Part shown: positions 33,903 through 48,639 of the stretch, piece by piece
Layout of the letters: the number at the start of each line of letters is the position of its first letter
Numbering within the stretch: position 1 is the stretch's first letter
Virus record (IMG/VR): IMGVR_UViG_3300012943_000685
Coordinates: 1-48,639 of that record
Source: a virus
Taxonomy: Duplodnaviria > Caudoviricetes
Length of the DNA stretch: 48,639 bases
Direction: 5' to 3' (one strand)
Translations under genes and position numbers: made by a program
The notes under the pieces: generated by a model
Databases searched by the model: none
Told to the model about the DNA's origin: nothing
The model's input: only the letters and a program-made list of their open reading frames with translations

Positions 33903-35335
33903 CCCCAAATTTTCCTTCCGTCCTTCCACACCCGAAGAATGATGGTGTTGCAGTTTGTGCCAGATGCCGAGAAAGAACCGGGTGGCAGGTCGCGCCAGTT
34001 CGCCTGCATCTTCTCCATGAGCGCTCGGAACGCGATGGATTTCCGCGTCTCGCGAAATTCAGTTCCAGCCGACATGATCGCGCAGAGAAACCCATCCGGC
34101 GCCAAGAATTTCAATGCATGGATCACATGGTCTATGTCCCGCTCGCGGTCGAACGGCGGGTTCATCACGATGCGGTCATAGAGCCCGGTCGGAGACGGAA
34201 CGAGATGGAGAAAATCGACATTCCAGACCTTGCCATACACGCGGGCCGACATGAGCATCGCCGCCAAGGCGGGCTGTATCTCGACGCAATCGACTTGAAC
34301 CCTCGGCGCAAGGCATCGGCGCGCCAGATTTCCGGTCCCCGCGCTTGGCTCAAGAACGCGGAGCGGTGGGCCTCTGTCAGGAGCATCTAACTTGGCGTCT
34401 TCGATCAGCCGGTCGGCCGCCGCATCCGGCGTCGGAAAGAACCCGTACCGCTTGGCGGGCGTCAGCTTTGGATCGTAGAGCCCACCGTCGTCTTCCGGCG
34501 GCTTCTGGTCGGAAATGGGCGCGCCATAATATTCGCCCAGCAGAAGGTTTACTCGATCCACGAGGTCATCGCGCTTGAACCAGAGGTGAACATTGCCGTT
34601 TTTGTAGGCGCGGATCAGGAAATAGTCTGTGTCGATTTCAGTCTGGCGTGCACCCCATGTGCGGCCACGCGCCTGCTCGATGGCGTGAACTGCGGTAAGG
34701 TTTATGGCCCGCCCCCCGTCAAGCACGCGGAAGACCCGCTCCACATCCGAAATCGTGTCCCGATGGTTGGAATAATGGTTCCAAAATCCATGGTCATCGA
34801 AAACGCGGGTGAGCACCACGCGGCTGCCAATCTTCCAGCCGTCATGCGAGCGAAAGCGCCGGTCCAGGTTGGAGAAGCACTCGGCCATGCCCCGTTTGAA
34901 GATCGTGCCCACATCGGCGGCGAACTGCTGAAGCGTGGCGCACACATTCTCAACCGTGACCTCCGGCGGGTCGTCGATAAGCTGCTGGTTGAATTGATCC
35001 TTGGCCTTTTTGTCCATCAACCGTTCGAGTTCGGTCAACTGCACGATGTGAGACCACACATCGGTATCGACGATGCGCCGCGCCGTTTGGACATAAGTGT
35101 CGCGCGCAGGCAGTTCGAGCGCCGTGTGAAACTCTGCCTTGTCAAGGTGCCGGTTGTAGCGGTTGACGCCCGGCGACGCTGCGCGCGATGCCTTCCCTGC
35201 CTCCTCAATGGCTTCGACTGCGCGCGACAGAGCGGTGTGCGCCTCGCCGAAAAGGGACAGCGCGCGGTTTCGGCGCGTCACCAGTTCCTCAACGGTGGCA
35301 CGCGGCATCAATTCCGTTCCGGGCGAACTGGTCAC
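33899..35335 (-). CDS. DUF4942-domain N6-adenine DNA methyltransferase
   Basis: YKNGNVHLWF, FFPTP, VLEPSAGTG, MNPPF, FSASGT; GTG start overlaps the upstream stop. Confidence 0.9.
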   Translation of the reverse strand: MTSSPGTELMPRATVEELVTRRNRALSLFGEAHTALSRAVEAIEEAGKASRAASPGVNRYNRHLDKAEFHTALELPARDTYVQTARRIVDTDVWSHIVQLTELERLMDKKAKDQFNQQLIDDPPEVTVENVCATLQQFAADVGTIFKRGMAECFSNLDRRFRSHDGWKIGSRVVLTRVFDDHGFWNHYSNHRDTISDVERVFRVLDGGRAINLTAVHAIEQARGRTWGARQTEIDTDYFLIRAYKNGNVHLWFKRDDLVDRVNLLLGEYYGAPISDQKPPEDDGGLYDPKLTPAKRYGFFPTPDAAADRLIEDAKLDAPDRGPPLRVLEPSAGTGNLARRCLAPRVQVDCVEIQPALAAMLMSARVYGKVWNVDFLHLVPSPTGLYDRIVMNPPFDRERDIDHVIHALKFLAPDGFLCAIMSAGTEFRETRKSIAFRALMEKMQANWRDLPPGSFSASGTNCNTIILRVWKDGRKIWG

Positions 35336-35862
35336 GCGCGCCTCTTTGCCTTCTCGACCACGCTCAAATCGCATTCCGGCAGCCGGATCATGACAGTGCC
35401 CTCGGTCGCGACGAGGGCCTCGCCCTTCACGCTGGAGATCAGCATCCCTACATAGCCGCGGAACAGGTCGTGCCGGTCAATCCGAACTTCGGTGCCGGGC
35501 GCGATGCCCTGCGTCACCAATCTGACCCGGCGGGACGCGGCCTCGACCTCATCGTCTTCGATCCGGCGCAGCGAAGGCACGACCGAGGCAGGCACGGCGC
35601 GGGGCCTGCCGTCCCGATTGCAGAACAGTTCCTGCACGCCGCGGGTGTTGCTGATCGGTCCGTGCTGCTGCTTCGCCACGTCAAACGCGACAAAGGCATA
35701 GGGCGCGAGCCGAAGCTCGGTCACGATGAAGCTGCGCTTGCCCAGCGTCTCCCGCCGATAGGATTTCGGCACATAGACCCGGAAGCCTTGCTCGGTCAGT
35801 CCGCGCCGGGCCAACAGATCGAGCCCCGGTTTGCTCCGGTACAGATGCCAGTTCTCAGCCAT
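35332..35862 (-). CDS. NusG/RfaH-like transcription antiterminator (late-gene regulator)
   Basis: NGN domain (WHLYRSKP, GFRVYVP, PYAFV, NTRGV) plus KOW (PGTEVRI....FRGYVG). Confidence 0.85.
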   Translation of the reverse strand: MAENWHLYRSKPGLDLLARRGLTEQGFRVYVPKSYRRETLGKRSFIVTELRLAPYAFVAFDVAKQQHGPISNTRGVQELFCNRDGRPRAVPASVVPSLRRIEDDEVEAASRRVRLVTQGIAPGTEVRIDRHDLFRGYVGMLISSVKGEALVATEGTVMIRLPECDLSVVEKAKRRA

Positions 35863-43496: not shown

Positions 43497-43596
43497 CAGT
43501 AATTCTCCTCGCGCTGTCGATGTGCCTGGCAGCGAATGACTGGCCGTCCGGCAGCGTTCTTCGCCGGGCGGTCTTTTTCCCAAGATGCGAGGACTT

Positions 43597-43914
43597 TCAT
43601 GTCGCCCTCAGATGTTCGGATTTCTTCGGCCAGATCATTACGGGCTGGACGGTCTCATTCAGATCGTGCCCACAATGCTGGCAGCAACGGGGACGCAGCA
43701 CATGGCGTATGATCTCAATCGAGCGCGCGCGCTTATGCAGCTTTCTCAAATAGCCGCGCTCAACCAATTCGCCGATTATGCGAAAGACGCCGGATTTGGC
43801 GGCGAGGCCCAGCGCGTGGCGAATCTCTTCATAGCTGGGGCTGAACCCGAACTGCTCCGCATAGATCTCGATGAACGCCTGCGTTCGAAATTGCTCTTTC
43901 GTCAGACCGCTCAA
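43597..43914 (-). CDS. LexA DNA-binding-domain-only protein with a C-terminal CxxC
   Basis: LT.EQ...FI......SPSYEEI..ALGL..KSGV.RI...L.ERG.L......RSIEI; TTG start with AGGAG; no S24 domain. Confidence 0.85.
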   Translation of the reverse strand: MSGLTKEQFRTQAFIEIYAEQFGFSPSYEEIRHALGLAAKSGVFRIIGELVERGYLRKLHKRARSIEIIRHVLRPRCCQHCGHDLNETVQPVMIWPKKSEHLRAT

Positions 43915-44213
43915 GCGCCGTTCTCCTGTTCGATGAGGGAGACCAGCGCGGATGTCGCCACATATTCGACGCGCAGTTGCAGTGGATCGGGGCCAGACCG
44001 CAGTGTGACGCGCAGCGCCTTCGATGGATCGGCAAATAGCCGCTTGATCCGTGTCGTGGTTTTGGATGCCGAGGCGTCGCCAGATTCGGCGCGGGCCATT
44101 ATGTCTTTGATGCATGTCAGGACATCGCCAATGCGCGACGTGTCGCTGACGATTGAAAGGCTGGTGCTCGATGTCGGCTTCGGCGCTGTCGCCACTCCCC
44201 CCGTGGCGCTCAT
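43911..44213 (-). CDS. Hypothetical protein
   Basis: 100 aa, coupled at both ends. Confidence 0.6.
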   Translation of the reverse strand: MSATGGVATAPKPTSSTSLSIVSDTSRIGDVLTCIKDIMARAESGDASASKTTTRIKRLFADPSKALRVTLRSGPDPLQLRVEYVATSALVSLIEQENGA

Positions 44214-44434
44214 TACATCACCATCAATTCAGAGCAGGGGCGAGCGTTGACCGCCCGCCCCGACTCGTCATCGCCTACCGGTAGGGGGGCTACCGGAGGC
44301 AAGGGTAGTTTCATGGAATTGAATGTTGAACGCTGGGCCGAAGCGGAGGCCCGGCTGCTCGGCCTGTCCGTCTGCCTTAGCGCGGTGGCCAAAGCCATCG
44401 CAGATGAAAAGCCTGAGTTCGGGCGCGCCATCAT
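44213..44434 (-). CDS. Coupled ORF partly antisense to 44313-44585
   Basis: ATGA start overlap and TAATG end overlap; low-complexity product. Confidence 0.4.
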   Translation of the reverse strand: MMARPNSGFSSAMALATALRQTDRPSSRASASAQRSTFNSMKLPLPPVAPLPVGDDESGRAVNARPCSELMVM

Positions 44435-44585
44435 TTCGCGCCTCGACGAACTGCTCGACCGCGCGCGCGTGGAGAACTGGCCTTCCGGGGCGATTTCTGA
44501 ACTGCGGGAGCAGAAGCAGGTTTTGCATCCTCAGCCGCACGGCGAAGAACCCTCACGGAAACCATCGCCGCAAAGTCAGAGCTAG
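44313..44585 (+). CDS. Antisense helical hypothetical protein
   Basis: 90 aa amphipathic helices; GGAGG/AAGGG upstream. Confidence 0.65.
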   Translation: MELNVERWAEAEARLLGLSVCLSAVAKAIADEKPEFGRAIISRLDELLDRARVENWPSGAISELREQKQVLHPQPHGEEPSRKPSPQSQS

Positions 44586-44685
44586 GCGACCTATGCGCGT
44601 CCGCCCACCACTCTTTGCGCCGCCGCTCCGCTTCATATTCCTCGCGGTAGATGCGCCGGACATCGGATTCGGTGAGGCCGATCAT
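44431..44685 (-). CDS. Coupled ORF (MIGLTESDVRRIYREE...) partly antisense to 44313-44585
   Basis: ATGA overlaps at both ends. Confidence 0.5.
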   Translation of the reverse strand: MIGLTESDVRRIYREEYEAERRRKEWWADAHRSPSSDFAAMVSVRVLRRAAEDAKPASAPAVQKSPRKASSPRARGRAVRRGAK

Positions 44686-45413
44686 GCCGCGGACCGGGGT
44701 TGTATGAGCGTGAAAACCCGACCACATGCGGCTACAATCCGGGCGACTGAAGCCAACAAGGGAGTGCGAAACCATGCGAAATGGGCAACGCGTAACGCCG
44801 ATGAAATGCGAATATGTGGACGCAGCGCTGGGGCAGACCGGTGGCGAAGCGCTGATCCTTCTGAGCCCCAAAGTGAAAGGCTCTTCCGCGAACCCATCCC
44901 CGTTCGCGATAGATTTGGCCTGCGCGCGGTTTCTGGCCTCGAAGCTTCAAGACCTAATCCGGGAAGCCGAACAGATGGAATGAGTGTCGTCGCCCTGCCC
45001 GCCTCGCGTAAATTTGGGCAGTCAAGCGAATGATGGCGAACGGGTTGCCTGTTTACAAAGATTTGAACTGCGCGAGGCCGATGCTCAAAGAGCACGCTAC
45101 GGTTCCCGACATCCACACACATGGAGGGGGAACCAATGAGAATTACAGTGGACCGAGCCGCAATAGAACGGCGCGCAATGAGAATGTTGATTTTAGGCTC
45201 GTTCGCGGCAGCGCGCAAAAGACATTCGCCGCGTTGGTGTCGCGAGCGATTGGTTGGACCAATCGTCGAATATCTGCGCACCCACCCGGCTCCTGTGTCC
45301 GGCAAGATAGAGACACTTCCCGTGGTCCGACTTGGCCGGGAGGAAGCAACGCACATCCTTGCCGACCATTGCCGAGCATGTGCGGGGTGCGATTTTGCTC
45401 CGAGCTGAATCAT
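44682..45413 (-). CDS. Cro-coupled 243-codon ORF antisense to two + strand genes
   Basis: ATG overlaps the cro stop; its stop overlaps the next ATG; Arg/Ser-rich product. Confidence 0.35.
   Translation of the reverse strand: MIQLGAKSHPAHARQWSARMCVASSRPSRTTGSVSILPDTGAGWVRRYSTIGPTNRSRHQRGECLLRAAANEPKINILIARRSIAARSTVILIGSPSMCVDVGNRSVLFEHRPRAVQIFVNRQPVRHHSLDCPNLREAGRATTLIPSVRLPGLGLEASRPETARRPNLSRTGMGSRKSLSLWGSEGSALRHRSAPALRPHIRISSALRVAHFAWFRTPLLASVARIVAACGRVFTLIQPRSAA
44774..44983 (+). CDS. Antisense small hypothetical protein
   Basis: RBS GGGAG; beta-beta-beta-helix pattern FAIDLACARFLASKLQDLI. Confidence 0.6.
   Translation: MRNGQRVTPMKCEYVDAALGQTGGEALILLSPKVKGSSANPSPFAIDLACARFLASKLQDLIREAEQME
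45136..45408 (+). CDS. Antisense small protein with a C-terminal Cys cluster
   Basis: RBS GGAGGGGG; HCRACAGC; stop 1 nt from the cro stop. Confidence 0.6.
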   Translation: MRITVDRAAIERRAMRMLILGSFAAARKRHSPRWCRERLVGPIVEYLRTHPAPVSGKIETLPVVRLGREEATHILADHCRACAGCDFAPS

Positions 45414-45667
45414 GCGGCAGCCGAATTGGAGTGGATGCGGCGCAGAACGGGGATATCGGAATTGTTGGCTTCGGCCAGCGGGCCGACCTTCACACCGGTT
45501 GCGTCGAAGATTCGAAGCGCCAACCCTATTGAGACACGCGGTGAGCCATCCACGATCCGACCAATATGGACCTTCGTGCAGCCAACAAGGCGGCCAAGAT
45601 CTTCATGGGTTTTGTCGTGGACCTTCAGCCAGTCACGAAGGTTGGTAATTTCGGCCGGTTCGCTCAT
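45410..45667 (-). CDS. cro: Cro-like HTH repressor
   Basis: LRDWLK....THEDLGRLVGCT..HI.RI..G; divergent from cI. Confidence 0.85.
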   Translation of the reverse strand: MSEPAEITNLRDWLKVHDKTHEDLGRLVGCTKVHIGRIVDGSPRVSIGLALRIFDATGVKVGPLAEANNSDIPVLRRIHSNSAAA

Positions 45668-45675
45668 GGCCGACA

Positions 45676-45729
45676 CTAGTAACATGGGGTGTACTATCAG
45701 CGCAATATCAAAAAACACCCCATGTTACG
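45676..45729. promoter_or_regulatory. OR operators and putative PR promoter
   Basis: GTAACATGGGGTGT at 45679-45692 and inverted at 45715-45728; - strand TTGCGC-N18-TACTAG. Confidence 0.8.
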
Positions 45730-45762
45730 ACGCCCGACATACGCTGCTTTAAAGTGTTGACC

Positions 45763-46107
45763 ATGGGCAAAAAACAGAAAAATCAGGAAAAGCTTCAGTT
45801 TGAGCCAATCGCCTTGCGGTTGGACGAGTGGCGTGAGCGCGCTGGGCTGAGCCGGGAAGAGTTGGGGGCACGCATCAACATGACCAAGGTGTCTGTCGGG
45901 CGCATGGTCAACGGCAAGCAGAATTGGAACCAAGAAGCGCTCCAACTCGCGGCTCAAGTCCTTGGCGTCGACTGGGCAGACCTTTTAACCGGGACGGGGA
46001 ATGGGGGCATTTTGGATGTTTGGGCGAAAATCCCGCCCGAGGATCGCGAGCGGGCGCTCGGCCATCTCAAACTCTACATTCGCGAAGCCGAAGAAAGCGT
46101 GGCGTAG
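45763..46107 (+). CDS. cI: CI-like XRE repressor without an S24 autoprotease domain
   Basis: LDEWRERAGLSREELGARI......VGRM.NG......L..AA.VLGV...DLL. Confidence 0.88.
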   Translation: MGKKQKNQEKLQFEPIALRLDEWRERAGLSREELGARINMTKVSVGRMVNGKQNWNQEALQLAAQVLGVDWADLLTGTGNGGILDVWAKIPPEDRERALGHLKLYIREAEESVA

Positions 46108-46708: not shown

Positions 46709-47563
46709 CTGAGCGAAATTGGAATAGAGCCAACAAAGTGGCCGCACGCCCCAAGAGGTCCGTGGATAAGCAATTTCCCCGACCTGATTGCCCAGTGCCA
46801 TTACAATCGGATGTTTCACCACCCGGCTTATCGGGCGGCTAAATCTGGCGCCAGCGCCGAGTCGGCCCACACTTTGGTGTCAGACTGCATCGCTGACGCC
46901 CAGATGGACCGGATCACAACCTTTTTGAATGGGCGGCGGCCCAGGGTTGTAGGCGTCCACTCGGAGGAATCTGGTGGCCGCAATAAAATCCCCACCATGT
47001 ATGCTGAAGTTTTGGCTGGAGTCCTGAATCTGGACACAGACCCGGGTATCGTTCAATCGACAGTGGCAAACCACTCCGAAGCGCCGTCTATTTATCATCG
47101 CTTTGTTTCTCCACCACTTTTTGATGGCTACGTTGAACCTGGGGCGGATTATCTGATCGTTGATGACACCTGCACGGCAGGCGGAACCTTGGCAAATCTG
47201 AAAGGATTTATTGAAGCTAGCGGGGGTAGGGTTGCAGGAATGTCGGTGCTGGCACTCCCAAATGTCGCGCTCCGGTACGAGATTTCGCTGGCCCAACCGA
47301 CACTCAAGCGTCTAATGATGAGGCACCCCAGTCTGGGTGCATACTGGATGGAGGAATTTGGTCATGACCTCGAAGGTCTCACAGAAGGGGAAGCGGGACA
47401 CCTTCTCAGCGCCCCGTCTTTTGACACCATCCGAAATCGGCTCACTGAGGCGCGACGCGATTGCGACCTCGCAAGAAGCGAAGCGGCTCATAGCCGAGCG
47501 GTCGAAACGTCAGAAGAACTCGATCAATGCGTTGATGAATATCCCGGTTCAGATGGCGGCTGA
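46709..47563 (+). CDS. Type I phosphoribosyltransferase-fold protein (probable CTG start at 46709; first ATG at 46811)
   Basis: PRPP-binding loop LIVDDTCTAGGTL; HPAYRAAKSG, GRNKIP; frame open from 46667. Confidence 0.85.
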   Translation: MSEIGIEPTKWPHAPRGPWISNFPDLIAQCHYNRMFHHPAYRAAKSGASAESAHTLVSDCIADAQMDRITTFLNGRRPRVVGVHSEESGGRNKIPTMYAEVLAGVLNLDTDPGIVQSTVANHSEAPSIYHRFVSPPLFDGYVEPGADYLIVDDTCTAGGTLANLKGFIEASGGRVAGMSVLALPNVALRYEISLAQPTLKRLMMRHPSLGAYWMEEFGHDLEGLTEGEAGHLLSAPSFDTIRNRLTEARRDCDLARSEAAHSRAVETSEELDQCVDEYPGSDGG

Positions 47564-48346: not shown

Positions 48347-48639
48347 TGGCCGATCATATAACTAAGACCTTCATGCACCGCTTCCGCTCTTGGCTGCCGG
48401 AGGTTGAATGCAAACGCTGGACGAATCCTGACGGATCAGAGGGCGCAATCGTTGCGCTGACCGCGCGGATTTCGGCCGGTATCACGCTCAAAGCAAGCGT
48501 TGAAGTGATGGCGGATGCGTCCATCGGCTCCCGCGCGTCCATCGGCGACGGCGCGTCCATCGGCGACGGCGCGTCCATCGGCGACGGCGCGTCCATCGGC
48601 GACGGCGCGTCCATCGGCGACGGCGCGTCCATCGGCGAC
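48346..48639 (+). CDS. Hexapeptide-repeat (left-handed beta-helix) protein, truncated by the window edge
   Basis: TGATG-coupled start; MADHITK...WTNPDGSEGAIVA...ASIGSR-(ASIGDG)n; absent from the ORF track because there is no stop. Confidence 0.85.
   Translation, partial: MADHITKTFMHRFRSWLPEVECKRWTNPDGSEGAIVALTARISAGITLKASVEVMADASIGSRASIGDGASIGDGASIGDGASIGDGASIGDGASIGD
48517..48639 (+). repeat. 18-bp tandem repeat GCGTCCATCGGCGACGGC
   Basis: One degenerate, five perfect and one partial copy running into the sequence end. Confidence 0.97.

Follow-up and report, generated by a model that had tools for sequence, protein, structure and literature searches.

Several phage systems are known in which a small gene lies on the strand opposite to an early lytic operon. 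In the TERi system of the Listeria prophage phi10403S (terI / anti-terI2), a small opposite-strand gene sits in the early lytic module beneath a lytic-strand ORF, and passages of the preprint report that a promoter of its own drives terI expression during lysogeny (bioRxiv 10.1101/2025.02.27.640495). Similarly, in Pseudomonas phage Fc02 the lytic-strand ORF directly after the cro analogue ner (gene 10) is described, in the sections of the report consulted, as overlapping olg1, an antisense gene transcribed in lysogens (PMC9936078). The noncontiguous operons tha/ith and Tab/anti-Tab, as portrayed in excerpts of their reports, also carry an antisense gene nested in a phage operon, and these are switched by the life cycle (PMC11087260, PMC10884400). 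A second body of work that bears on the locus considered here concerns termination-reinitiation coupling. According to the cited passages, ATGA and 1-nt overlaps of stop and start codons hand ribosomes on from one ORF to the next, and translation shields RNA from Rho (PMC6728339, PMC12548453, PMC12360218), as with orf45-anrP of Gifsy-1 (PMC4825925); Rho itself loads on untranslated RNA (PMC12360218, PMC12548453).

The window that we analyzed, a stretch of 48,639 nt that makes up a 48.6-kb tailed-phage record from a soil metagenome, encodes terminase, portal, head, and tail genes. A CI-like repressor (45754..46107, + strand; Pfam HTH_3, E 4e-10, and PHROG repressor families) is divergent from a Cro-like gene (45410..45667, - strand; HTH_31, E 5e-5, below the Pfam cut-off), the first gene of a lytic, PR-type row. 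The switch region (45679..45728) contains a perfect 14-bp inverted repeat (45679-45692 / 45715-45728) whose arms are likely operators. From this CI/Cro switch and from the nearest annotated matches, which belong to phages of Rhizobium and Sinorhizobium and are about 30% identical, we infer that the phage is temperate and that its host is an alphaproteobacterium. No DNA relative of the window was found among annotated phages, and the sole match in a metagenome scan was the window's own contig. Elsewhere in the window we noted a 250-aa gene behind cI (46811-47563, +; phrog_22413, E 4e-45) with weak phosphoribosyltransferase similarity and a possible accessory role in lysogeny, an ORF that begins with about six copies of the six-residue unit MDAPSP (48354-48632, +), a match to a PHROG transcription antiterminator family (35335-35862, -; E 5e-7), and, at the left end, a 417-aa gene with a match to a PHROG DNA polymerase family (252-1502, -; E 2e-50).

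On the minus strand, cro is followed by the ORFs m1 (243 aa; 44682..45413), m2 (84 aa; 44431..44685), m3 (73 aa; 44213..44434), and m4 (100 aa; 43911..44213), by a gene for a LexA-like DNA-binding domain (105 aa; 43597..43914), and by a weakly CII-like gene. Nested between cro and the co-oriented m4/LexA-like gene are three plus-strand ORFs: p1 (90 aa; 44313..44585), p2 (69 aa; 44774..44983), and p3 (90 aa; 45136..45408). A sequence-only reading of this DNA had proposed that each minus-strand ORF starts on the stop codon of its predecessor, and all five junctions indeed read this way, with 4-nt or 1-nt overlaps (ATGA at 45413-45410, 44685-44682, and 44434-44431; TAATG at 44215-44211; TTGA at 43914-43911). 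The complete cover of the three plus-strand ORFs that it described is likewise correct, as p1, p2, and p3 lie wholly within the minus-strand chain.

This block consists of antisense ORFs in an early lytic row that are crossed by a coupled chain, and on balance we lean towards the view that the chain relays ribosomes from cro to the LexA-like gene. In a lysogen, p1 and p2 would be read as accessory genes from their own predicted promoters. Upon induction, the lytic transcript would cross about 1.2 kb that is antisense to these accessory genes; ribosomes stopping at cro would restart on m1, m2, m3, and m4 and cover Rho-accessible RNA, and the relay would thereby protect some 1.2 kb of the message against Rho-dependent termination or decay. 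Under this proposal, selection would act on m1, and on those halves of m2 and m3 that overlap antisense ORFs, for openness and not for the encoded protein. Once the phage is induced, the antisense genes would be damped by lytic transcription. The cassettes probably entered the junction one after another.

The three antisense ORFs had been taken as genes with ribosome-binding sites. Strong sites are present at all of them: among 700 antisense ATGs, an equal or better Shine-Dalgarno sequence was found in 1.1% of cases for p1, 1.7% for p2, and 0% for p3. As to gene status, p1 has a codon score of +11 and an AlphaFold model of three helices (pLDDT 73), and p2 has a codon score of +7 and an Atlas model (pLDDT 0.76) with TM values of 0.76-0.84 to unnamed clusters. 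In contrast, p3 combines the strongest ribosome site with a negative codon score (-21), a pLDDT of 64, and no synonymous change among three in a relative; it is a doubtful or young gene, and the claim fails to hold for it to this extent. For p1, neither a pattern scan nor a word search returned a homologue, and nothing passed E 0.001 in a fold search. In the Atlas, feature hits of p1 and p2 reach at most 0.85 and serve as leads only. None of p1-p3 had a hit in PADLOC (2023), Pfam, PHROG, or NCBIfam, a comparison made through these collections and not by direct alignment to TerI, Tha, or Tab. A predicted sigma-70 promoter for p2, perhaps for p2-p3, lies at 44710..44738 (+), with 1 of 300 shuffles as good (P 0.003), and no separate promoter was predicted for p3. 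The predicted promoter of p1 (+; -35 at 44247-44252, -10 at 44269-44274; P 0.19) is placed as in locus L020 of the phages described below. Promoter scores exceeded those of shuffles in five of 16 tested cases (p2, L053, L020, L044, and L054).

On the lytic strand, m1 spans p3 and p2 and has a filler-like codon score of -54; it ends in Ala-Ala-stop, like true gene junctions. In the fetched viral loci, Ala-Ala precedes the stop in 79 of 322 gene-gene 4-nt overlaps, compared to 141 of 7898 background sites (1.8%). The 3' half of m2 (codon score -3) lies over p1, and its start, MIGLT, is a copy of the start of the LexA-like gene; m3 (codon score -5) lies over the 5' part of p1 and over a double hairpin. 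With a codon score of +12, m4 is probably a real gene of no assigned family: searches of m1-m4 against PADLOC, Pfam, PHROG, and NCBIfam gave only a weak PHROG hit, for m4 (E 0.046). The sequence-only reading had treated m1, m2, and m3 as largely antisense shadows. This does not apply in the ordinary sense; all three are out of register with p1-p3, and none lies in the same-register antisense frame that is the usual source of long shadows. Over p2, m1 uses the stop-richest frame, which was open in 0.9-2.5% of codon-usage recodings and in 36% of cases when p2's own codons were permuted. The plus-strand ORF at 43585-44250 was also considered as a gene; its 5' half was rejected as an in-register shadow of the LexA-like gene, and in its 3' half substitutions do not separate it from m4.

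The chain ends at the LexA-like gene (PF01726, E 2e-7), whose product carries a CxxC tail and whose TTG start is borne out by homologues, since their alignments begin at residue 1; a pattern scan and a word search found no relatives of this protein. The ribosome sites of m1-m4 (-1.7, -2.4, -5.9, and -3.1 kcal/mol) are weak, as expected if these ORFs depend on re-initiation. Against a relay counts the LexA-like gene's own good ribosome site (-7.4), since with it the gene needs no relay for its start, and so does the mildness of the block's excess of C over G (466 C, 436 G). At the stop codon of cro, a predicted hairpin did not reach significance (z +0.5).

Substitutions could be read from run X2, whose contigs represent a relative with about 90% identity over parts of the block; at their depth of 3-9, single differences may be errors. 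The 45410-45413 junction is unchanged in the full table, and no change fell at 44211-44215 or 43911-43914 among the 40 of 161 differences listed; the contigs do not cover the m1/m2 (44685-44682) and m2/m3 (44434-44431) junctions. The body of p1 is too diverged to be aligned, while its flanks are kept. Within m4, third positions account for 21 of 31 changes, and the change is synonymous in 19 of the 29 codons affected (P 8e-5). Because the plus-strand frame that shares these third positions gives 14 of 24, the strand of m4 was assigned from codon scores; taken together, m4 is probably a true gene under protein-type constraint. The free parts of m2 and m3 have four synonymous changes out of five (P 0.03; m2 alone, 2/2), and the p3/m1 overlap has none out of three in either frame. 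As judged from the sequence, the chain is a mixture, in which m4 appears to be constrained, the start of m2 to be copied, and m3 to carry a conserved double hairpin. The idea that filler ORFs are selected to keep ribosomes on the transcript thus survives in part. Coverage over product fits the codon score of m1 and the comparative data presented below, and m4, with its constraint and gene-like codon score, looks like a gene and not like filler.

Other phages were then compared at the same boundary. The alignment of LexA-like homologues led to 50 viral loci, of which 43 were viewed, and cro-based searches added further ones; in some loci, the cro label reflects position and look, with no profile hit. 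Genome searches matched 2 of 401 and 48 of 401 genomes; of the 30 loci that came from the second search, 12 were viewed, and L098 and L099 were used from these. Since an automatic caller of nested antisense genes was too noisy, the cargo was chosen by eye, and 13 loci were judged to possess an antisense gene after cro or before the LexA-like gene, a hand-picking that may inflate the figures. The proteins of 13 cargo ORFs showed no significant pairwise homology (best E 0.013; alignments 11-20% identical). An empty junction, with the cro-like gene overlapping the LexA-like start, is present in L007, L017, L018, L045, and L046. Around the m1/m2 overlap, a stretch of 17 nt recurs without a mismatch at the LexA-like gene start of five loci. 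Searched as a word, it gave 21 viral-contig matches (13 LexA-like starts, 2 other coupled starts, and 6 gene-internal); 10 of these 13 LexA-like starts lie directly after a cro-like gene, and 5 of the 13 are on contigs already seen. The start of m2 may therefore be a relic of an old cro/LexA-like boundary around which the cassettes entered. In L137 (2503-2676), cro is followed by a 57-aa ORF with a LexA-like start that is then divergent, a second relic of this boundary. In L048 (4322-5167), cro and a CII-like gene are linked by an exactly coupled, junk-like ORF of 281 aa, beneath which no antisense gene is clearly present. Lytic-strand cover was absent in L098 (30% GC) and L002, at the homologues of the L099 cargo in HK446, VW-6B, and Kp4882-1, and at gp11 and gp19 of 80alpha, both of which have stops in all three lytic frames.

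Homologues of the L099 cargo occurred in 60 phage records, nine of which were fetched. In five of five D3112-like alleles (D3112, LPB1, DMS3, Forsyth, and PfII40a; L120, L121, and L126-L128), a lytic frame of 173-206 codons is open across the antisense orf25, between the small terminase gene and the large one. Between D3112 and LPB1, 90 third positions differ; the changed codons divide into synonymous and non-synonymous as 48:60 for the cargo frame and as 10:98 for the lytic frame. The frame over orf25 has remained open, although the protein that it would encode drifts freely. The chance of no stop is 0.001-0.015 per D3112-like allele by a rough model that may overstate the rarity. An ATGA-coupled start was found in only two of the five frames (LPB1 and Forsyth). 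The ninth fetched record has an ORF on the opposite strand over the match. In HK446, the copy of the L099 cargo lies behind the N gene, and a bridge may be needless there owing to antitermination by N. With respect to annotation, four records list only orf25, and Forsyth lists only the lytic-strand ORF. The tab/anti-tab pair of JBD26 has been described between these two terminase genes.

These data bear on a different explanation, namely that the lytic-strand ORFs, with m2 and m4 as the best candidates, are self-immunity proteins that neutralize antisense defence proteins at induction, the coupling being ordinary operon design. Such proteins, which the sequence-only reading did not take into account, have precedents in the two closest published cases, namely in the cited passages on Listeria, where anti-TerI2, encoded opposite to terI and overlapping it, is a TerI-binding protein (bioRxiv 2025.02.27.640495), and on Fc02, where gene 10, overlapping olg1 after ner, yields an active protein (PMC9936078). 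The constraint on m4 and the synonymous changes in the free parts of m2 and m3 fit this explanation as well, although the changes in m3 also lie in the RNA hairpin. It does not fit the codon score and the three non-synonymous changes of m1, the free drift of the D3112-like lytic frame, or the lack of database matches for p1-p3 and m1-m4 beyond the weak one of m4. We consider it unlikely as an account of the block. It is nevertheless compatible with the relay, and both can hold if the bridging falls to m1 and a protein is made from m2 or m4.

The chain might also be mostly chance, a product of long open frames in GC-rich DNA and of junctions left over from insertions, without current selection. 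The five consecutive couplings had been thought unlikely by chance, a judgement that we simulated; all chance tests on the chain were made after the fact. In the window, 50-56% of stop triplets overlap an ATG, GTG, or TTG (19-26% an ATG), and five couplings with any start arise in about 2% of Markov nulls. Since about half of the stops overlap a start codon, the couplings by themselves come cheaply and are weak evidence. A chain of at least 1490 nt was reached from 0.05-0.09% of Markov starts. The fairest null kept the p1-p3 proteins, the first junction, m4, and the hairpin stretch all fixed (81,686-87,107 runs per model). Under it, an exact chain to m4 occurred in 1.1-2.5% and an ATG-only chain in 0.4-1.0%, whereas a loose chain (gap -10 to +10) occurred in 22-26%; when m4 was shuffled as well, the LexA-like start was reached exactly in about 0.2%. 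As an empirical control, we counted the stops that begin a chain of at least 1197 nt: 1 of 1054 on the non-coding strand of the window, and 24 of 3782 in the fetched loci. Taken alone, the chain in the window is moderately unusual, which is suggestive but short of decisive.

The main weight of the argument lies in the comparison with other loci. A loosely coupled chain to the next lytic gene is present in 11 of the 13 antisense-cargo loci, compared to an expectation of 3.3 (codon-usage recoding, P 3e-7) or 5.4 (codon permutation, P 4e-5). Exact chains occur in four of the 13, with 1.0 expected (P 0.004) or 2.1 under the stricter null (P 0.08). The sequence-only reading had proposed to check whether relatives keep the coupling while the cargo varies; in these hand-picked loci, loose chains are in excess, but exact counts are weak under the stricter null. 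Chance draws further support from five of the 13 loci, which were covered in every codon permutation, and from the MIGLT start of m2, which may be an insertion scar. The rarity of the exact chain, the pooled excess at the other loci, and the survival of D3112-like open frames through about 90 third-position changes all speak against it, and we regard chance as improbable.

The double hairpin on the lytic strand (44219..44312; z -5 to -7) includes the predicted p1 promoter and the p1 ribosome site and is, with z -7.1, the strongest fold within 43.5-45.7 kb. In the relative, one of its 87 positions is changed, compared to 21 of 149 in m4. Similar hairpins with a predicted antisense promoter were seen in L020 (5915-6001), L044 (5744-5836), and L054 (1296-1385), where they adjoin the ribosome site of the next lytic gene. 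Tandem-hairpin antiterminators exist, e.g., put of HK022. We nevertheless think it very unlikely that the selected feature is the RNA structure itself, with the double hairpin acting as an attenuator, pause, or antiterminator to which the chain delivers ribosomes, because, despite its strength, its conservation beyond that of m4, and the two-sided changes at 5 of 13 pairs of the hairpin in L020, L044, and L054, it has no U-tract, terminator call, or Rfam match (the one Rfam hit was at chance level and outside the block), z is weaker than -2 in 8 of the 13 other loci, and the pair changes come from four sequences only, a repeat that promoter or operator symmetry could explain.

We tentatively extend the relay proposal to a general rule, which may apply but which we would not yet favor: in temperate phages of Proteobacteria, a coupled, sequence-free lytic ORF would bridge each antisense accessory gene, the cro/LexA-like boundary would be a hotspot at which cassettes enter and its junction word is used again, and new genes, for example m4 or anti-defence inhibitors, would originate from bridges. 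If this is true, many of the ORFs called "hypothetical proteins" behind cro serve as bridges and not as proteins, and gene callers choose the wrong strand or miss the antisense gene that is real. Coupled, junk-like ORFs could then be used to search for hidden lysogeny genes, the published members of the class being anti-phage defences. Such bridges would also offer a natural test of selection holding a frame open solely for ribosome carriage, and a way in which overprinted genes could arise.

Publications already describe antisense genes within lytic operons as well as fully overlapped pairs, as the cited excerpts attest. A full-text literature search that covered few subscription journals showed, among the hits listed, no paper on coupled bridge ORFs across antisense genes. 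The block differs from TERi in having three antisense ORFs instead of one, and the overlapping ORF of TERi is described as a conserved inhibitor protein; the passages of the TERi account (bioRxiv 10.1101/2025.02.27.640495) mention no coupled chain or polarity role. Fc02, as its cited sections present it, is Mu-like, with olg1 on the repressor transcript and exclusion proteins from both strands (PMC9936078), and in the excerpts on tha/ith and Tab/anti-Tab these operons are without the full lytic-strand ORF cover present here (PMC11087260, PMC10884400). The published cases of coupling and polarity, so far as the cited passages describe them, are real gene pairs or short leader ORFs and none runs across antisense genes, whereas the chain between cro and the LexA-like gene crosses three antisense ORFs.
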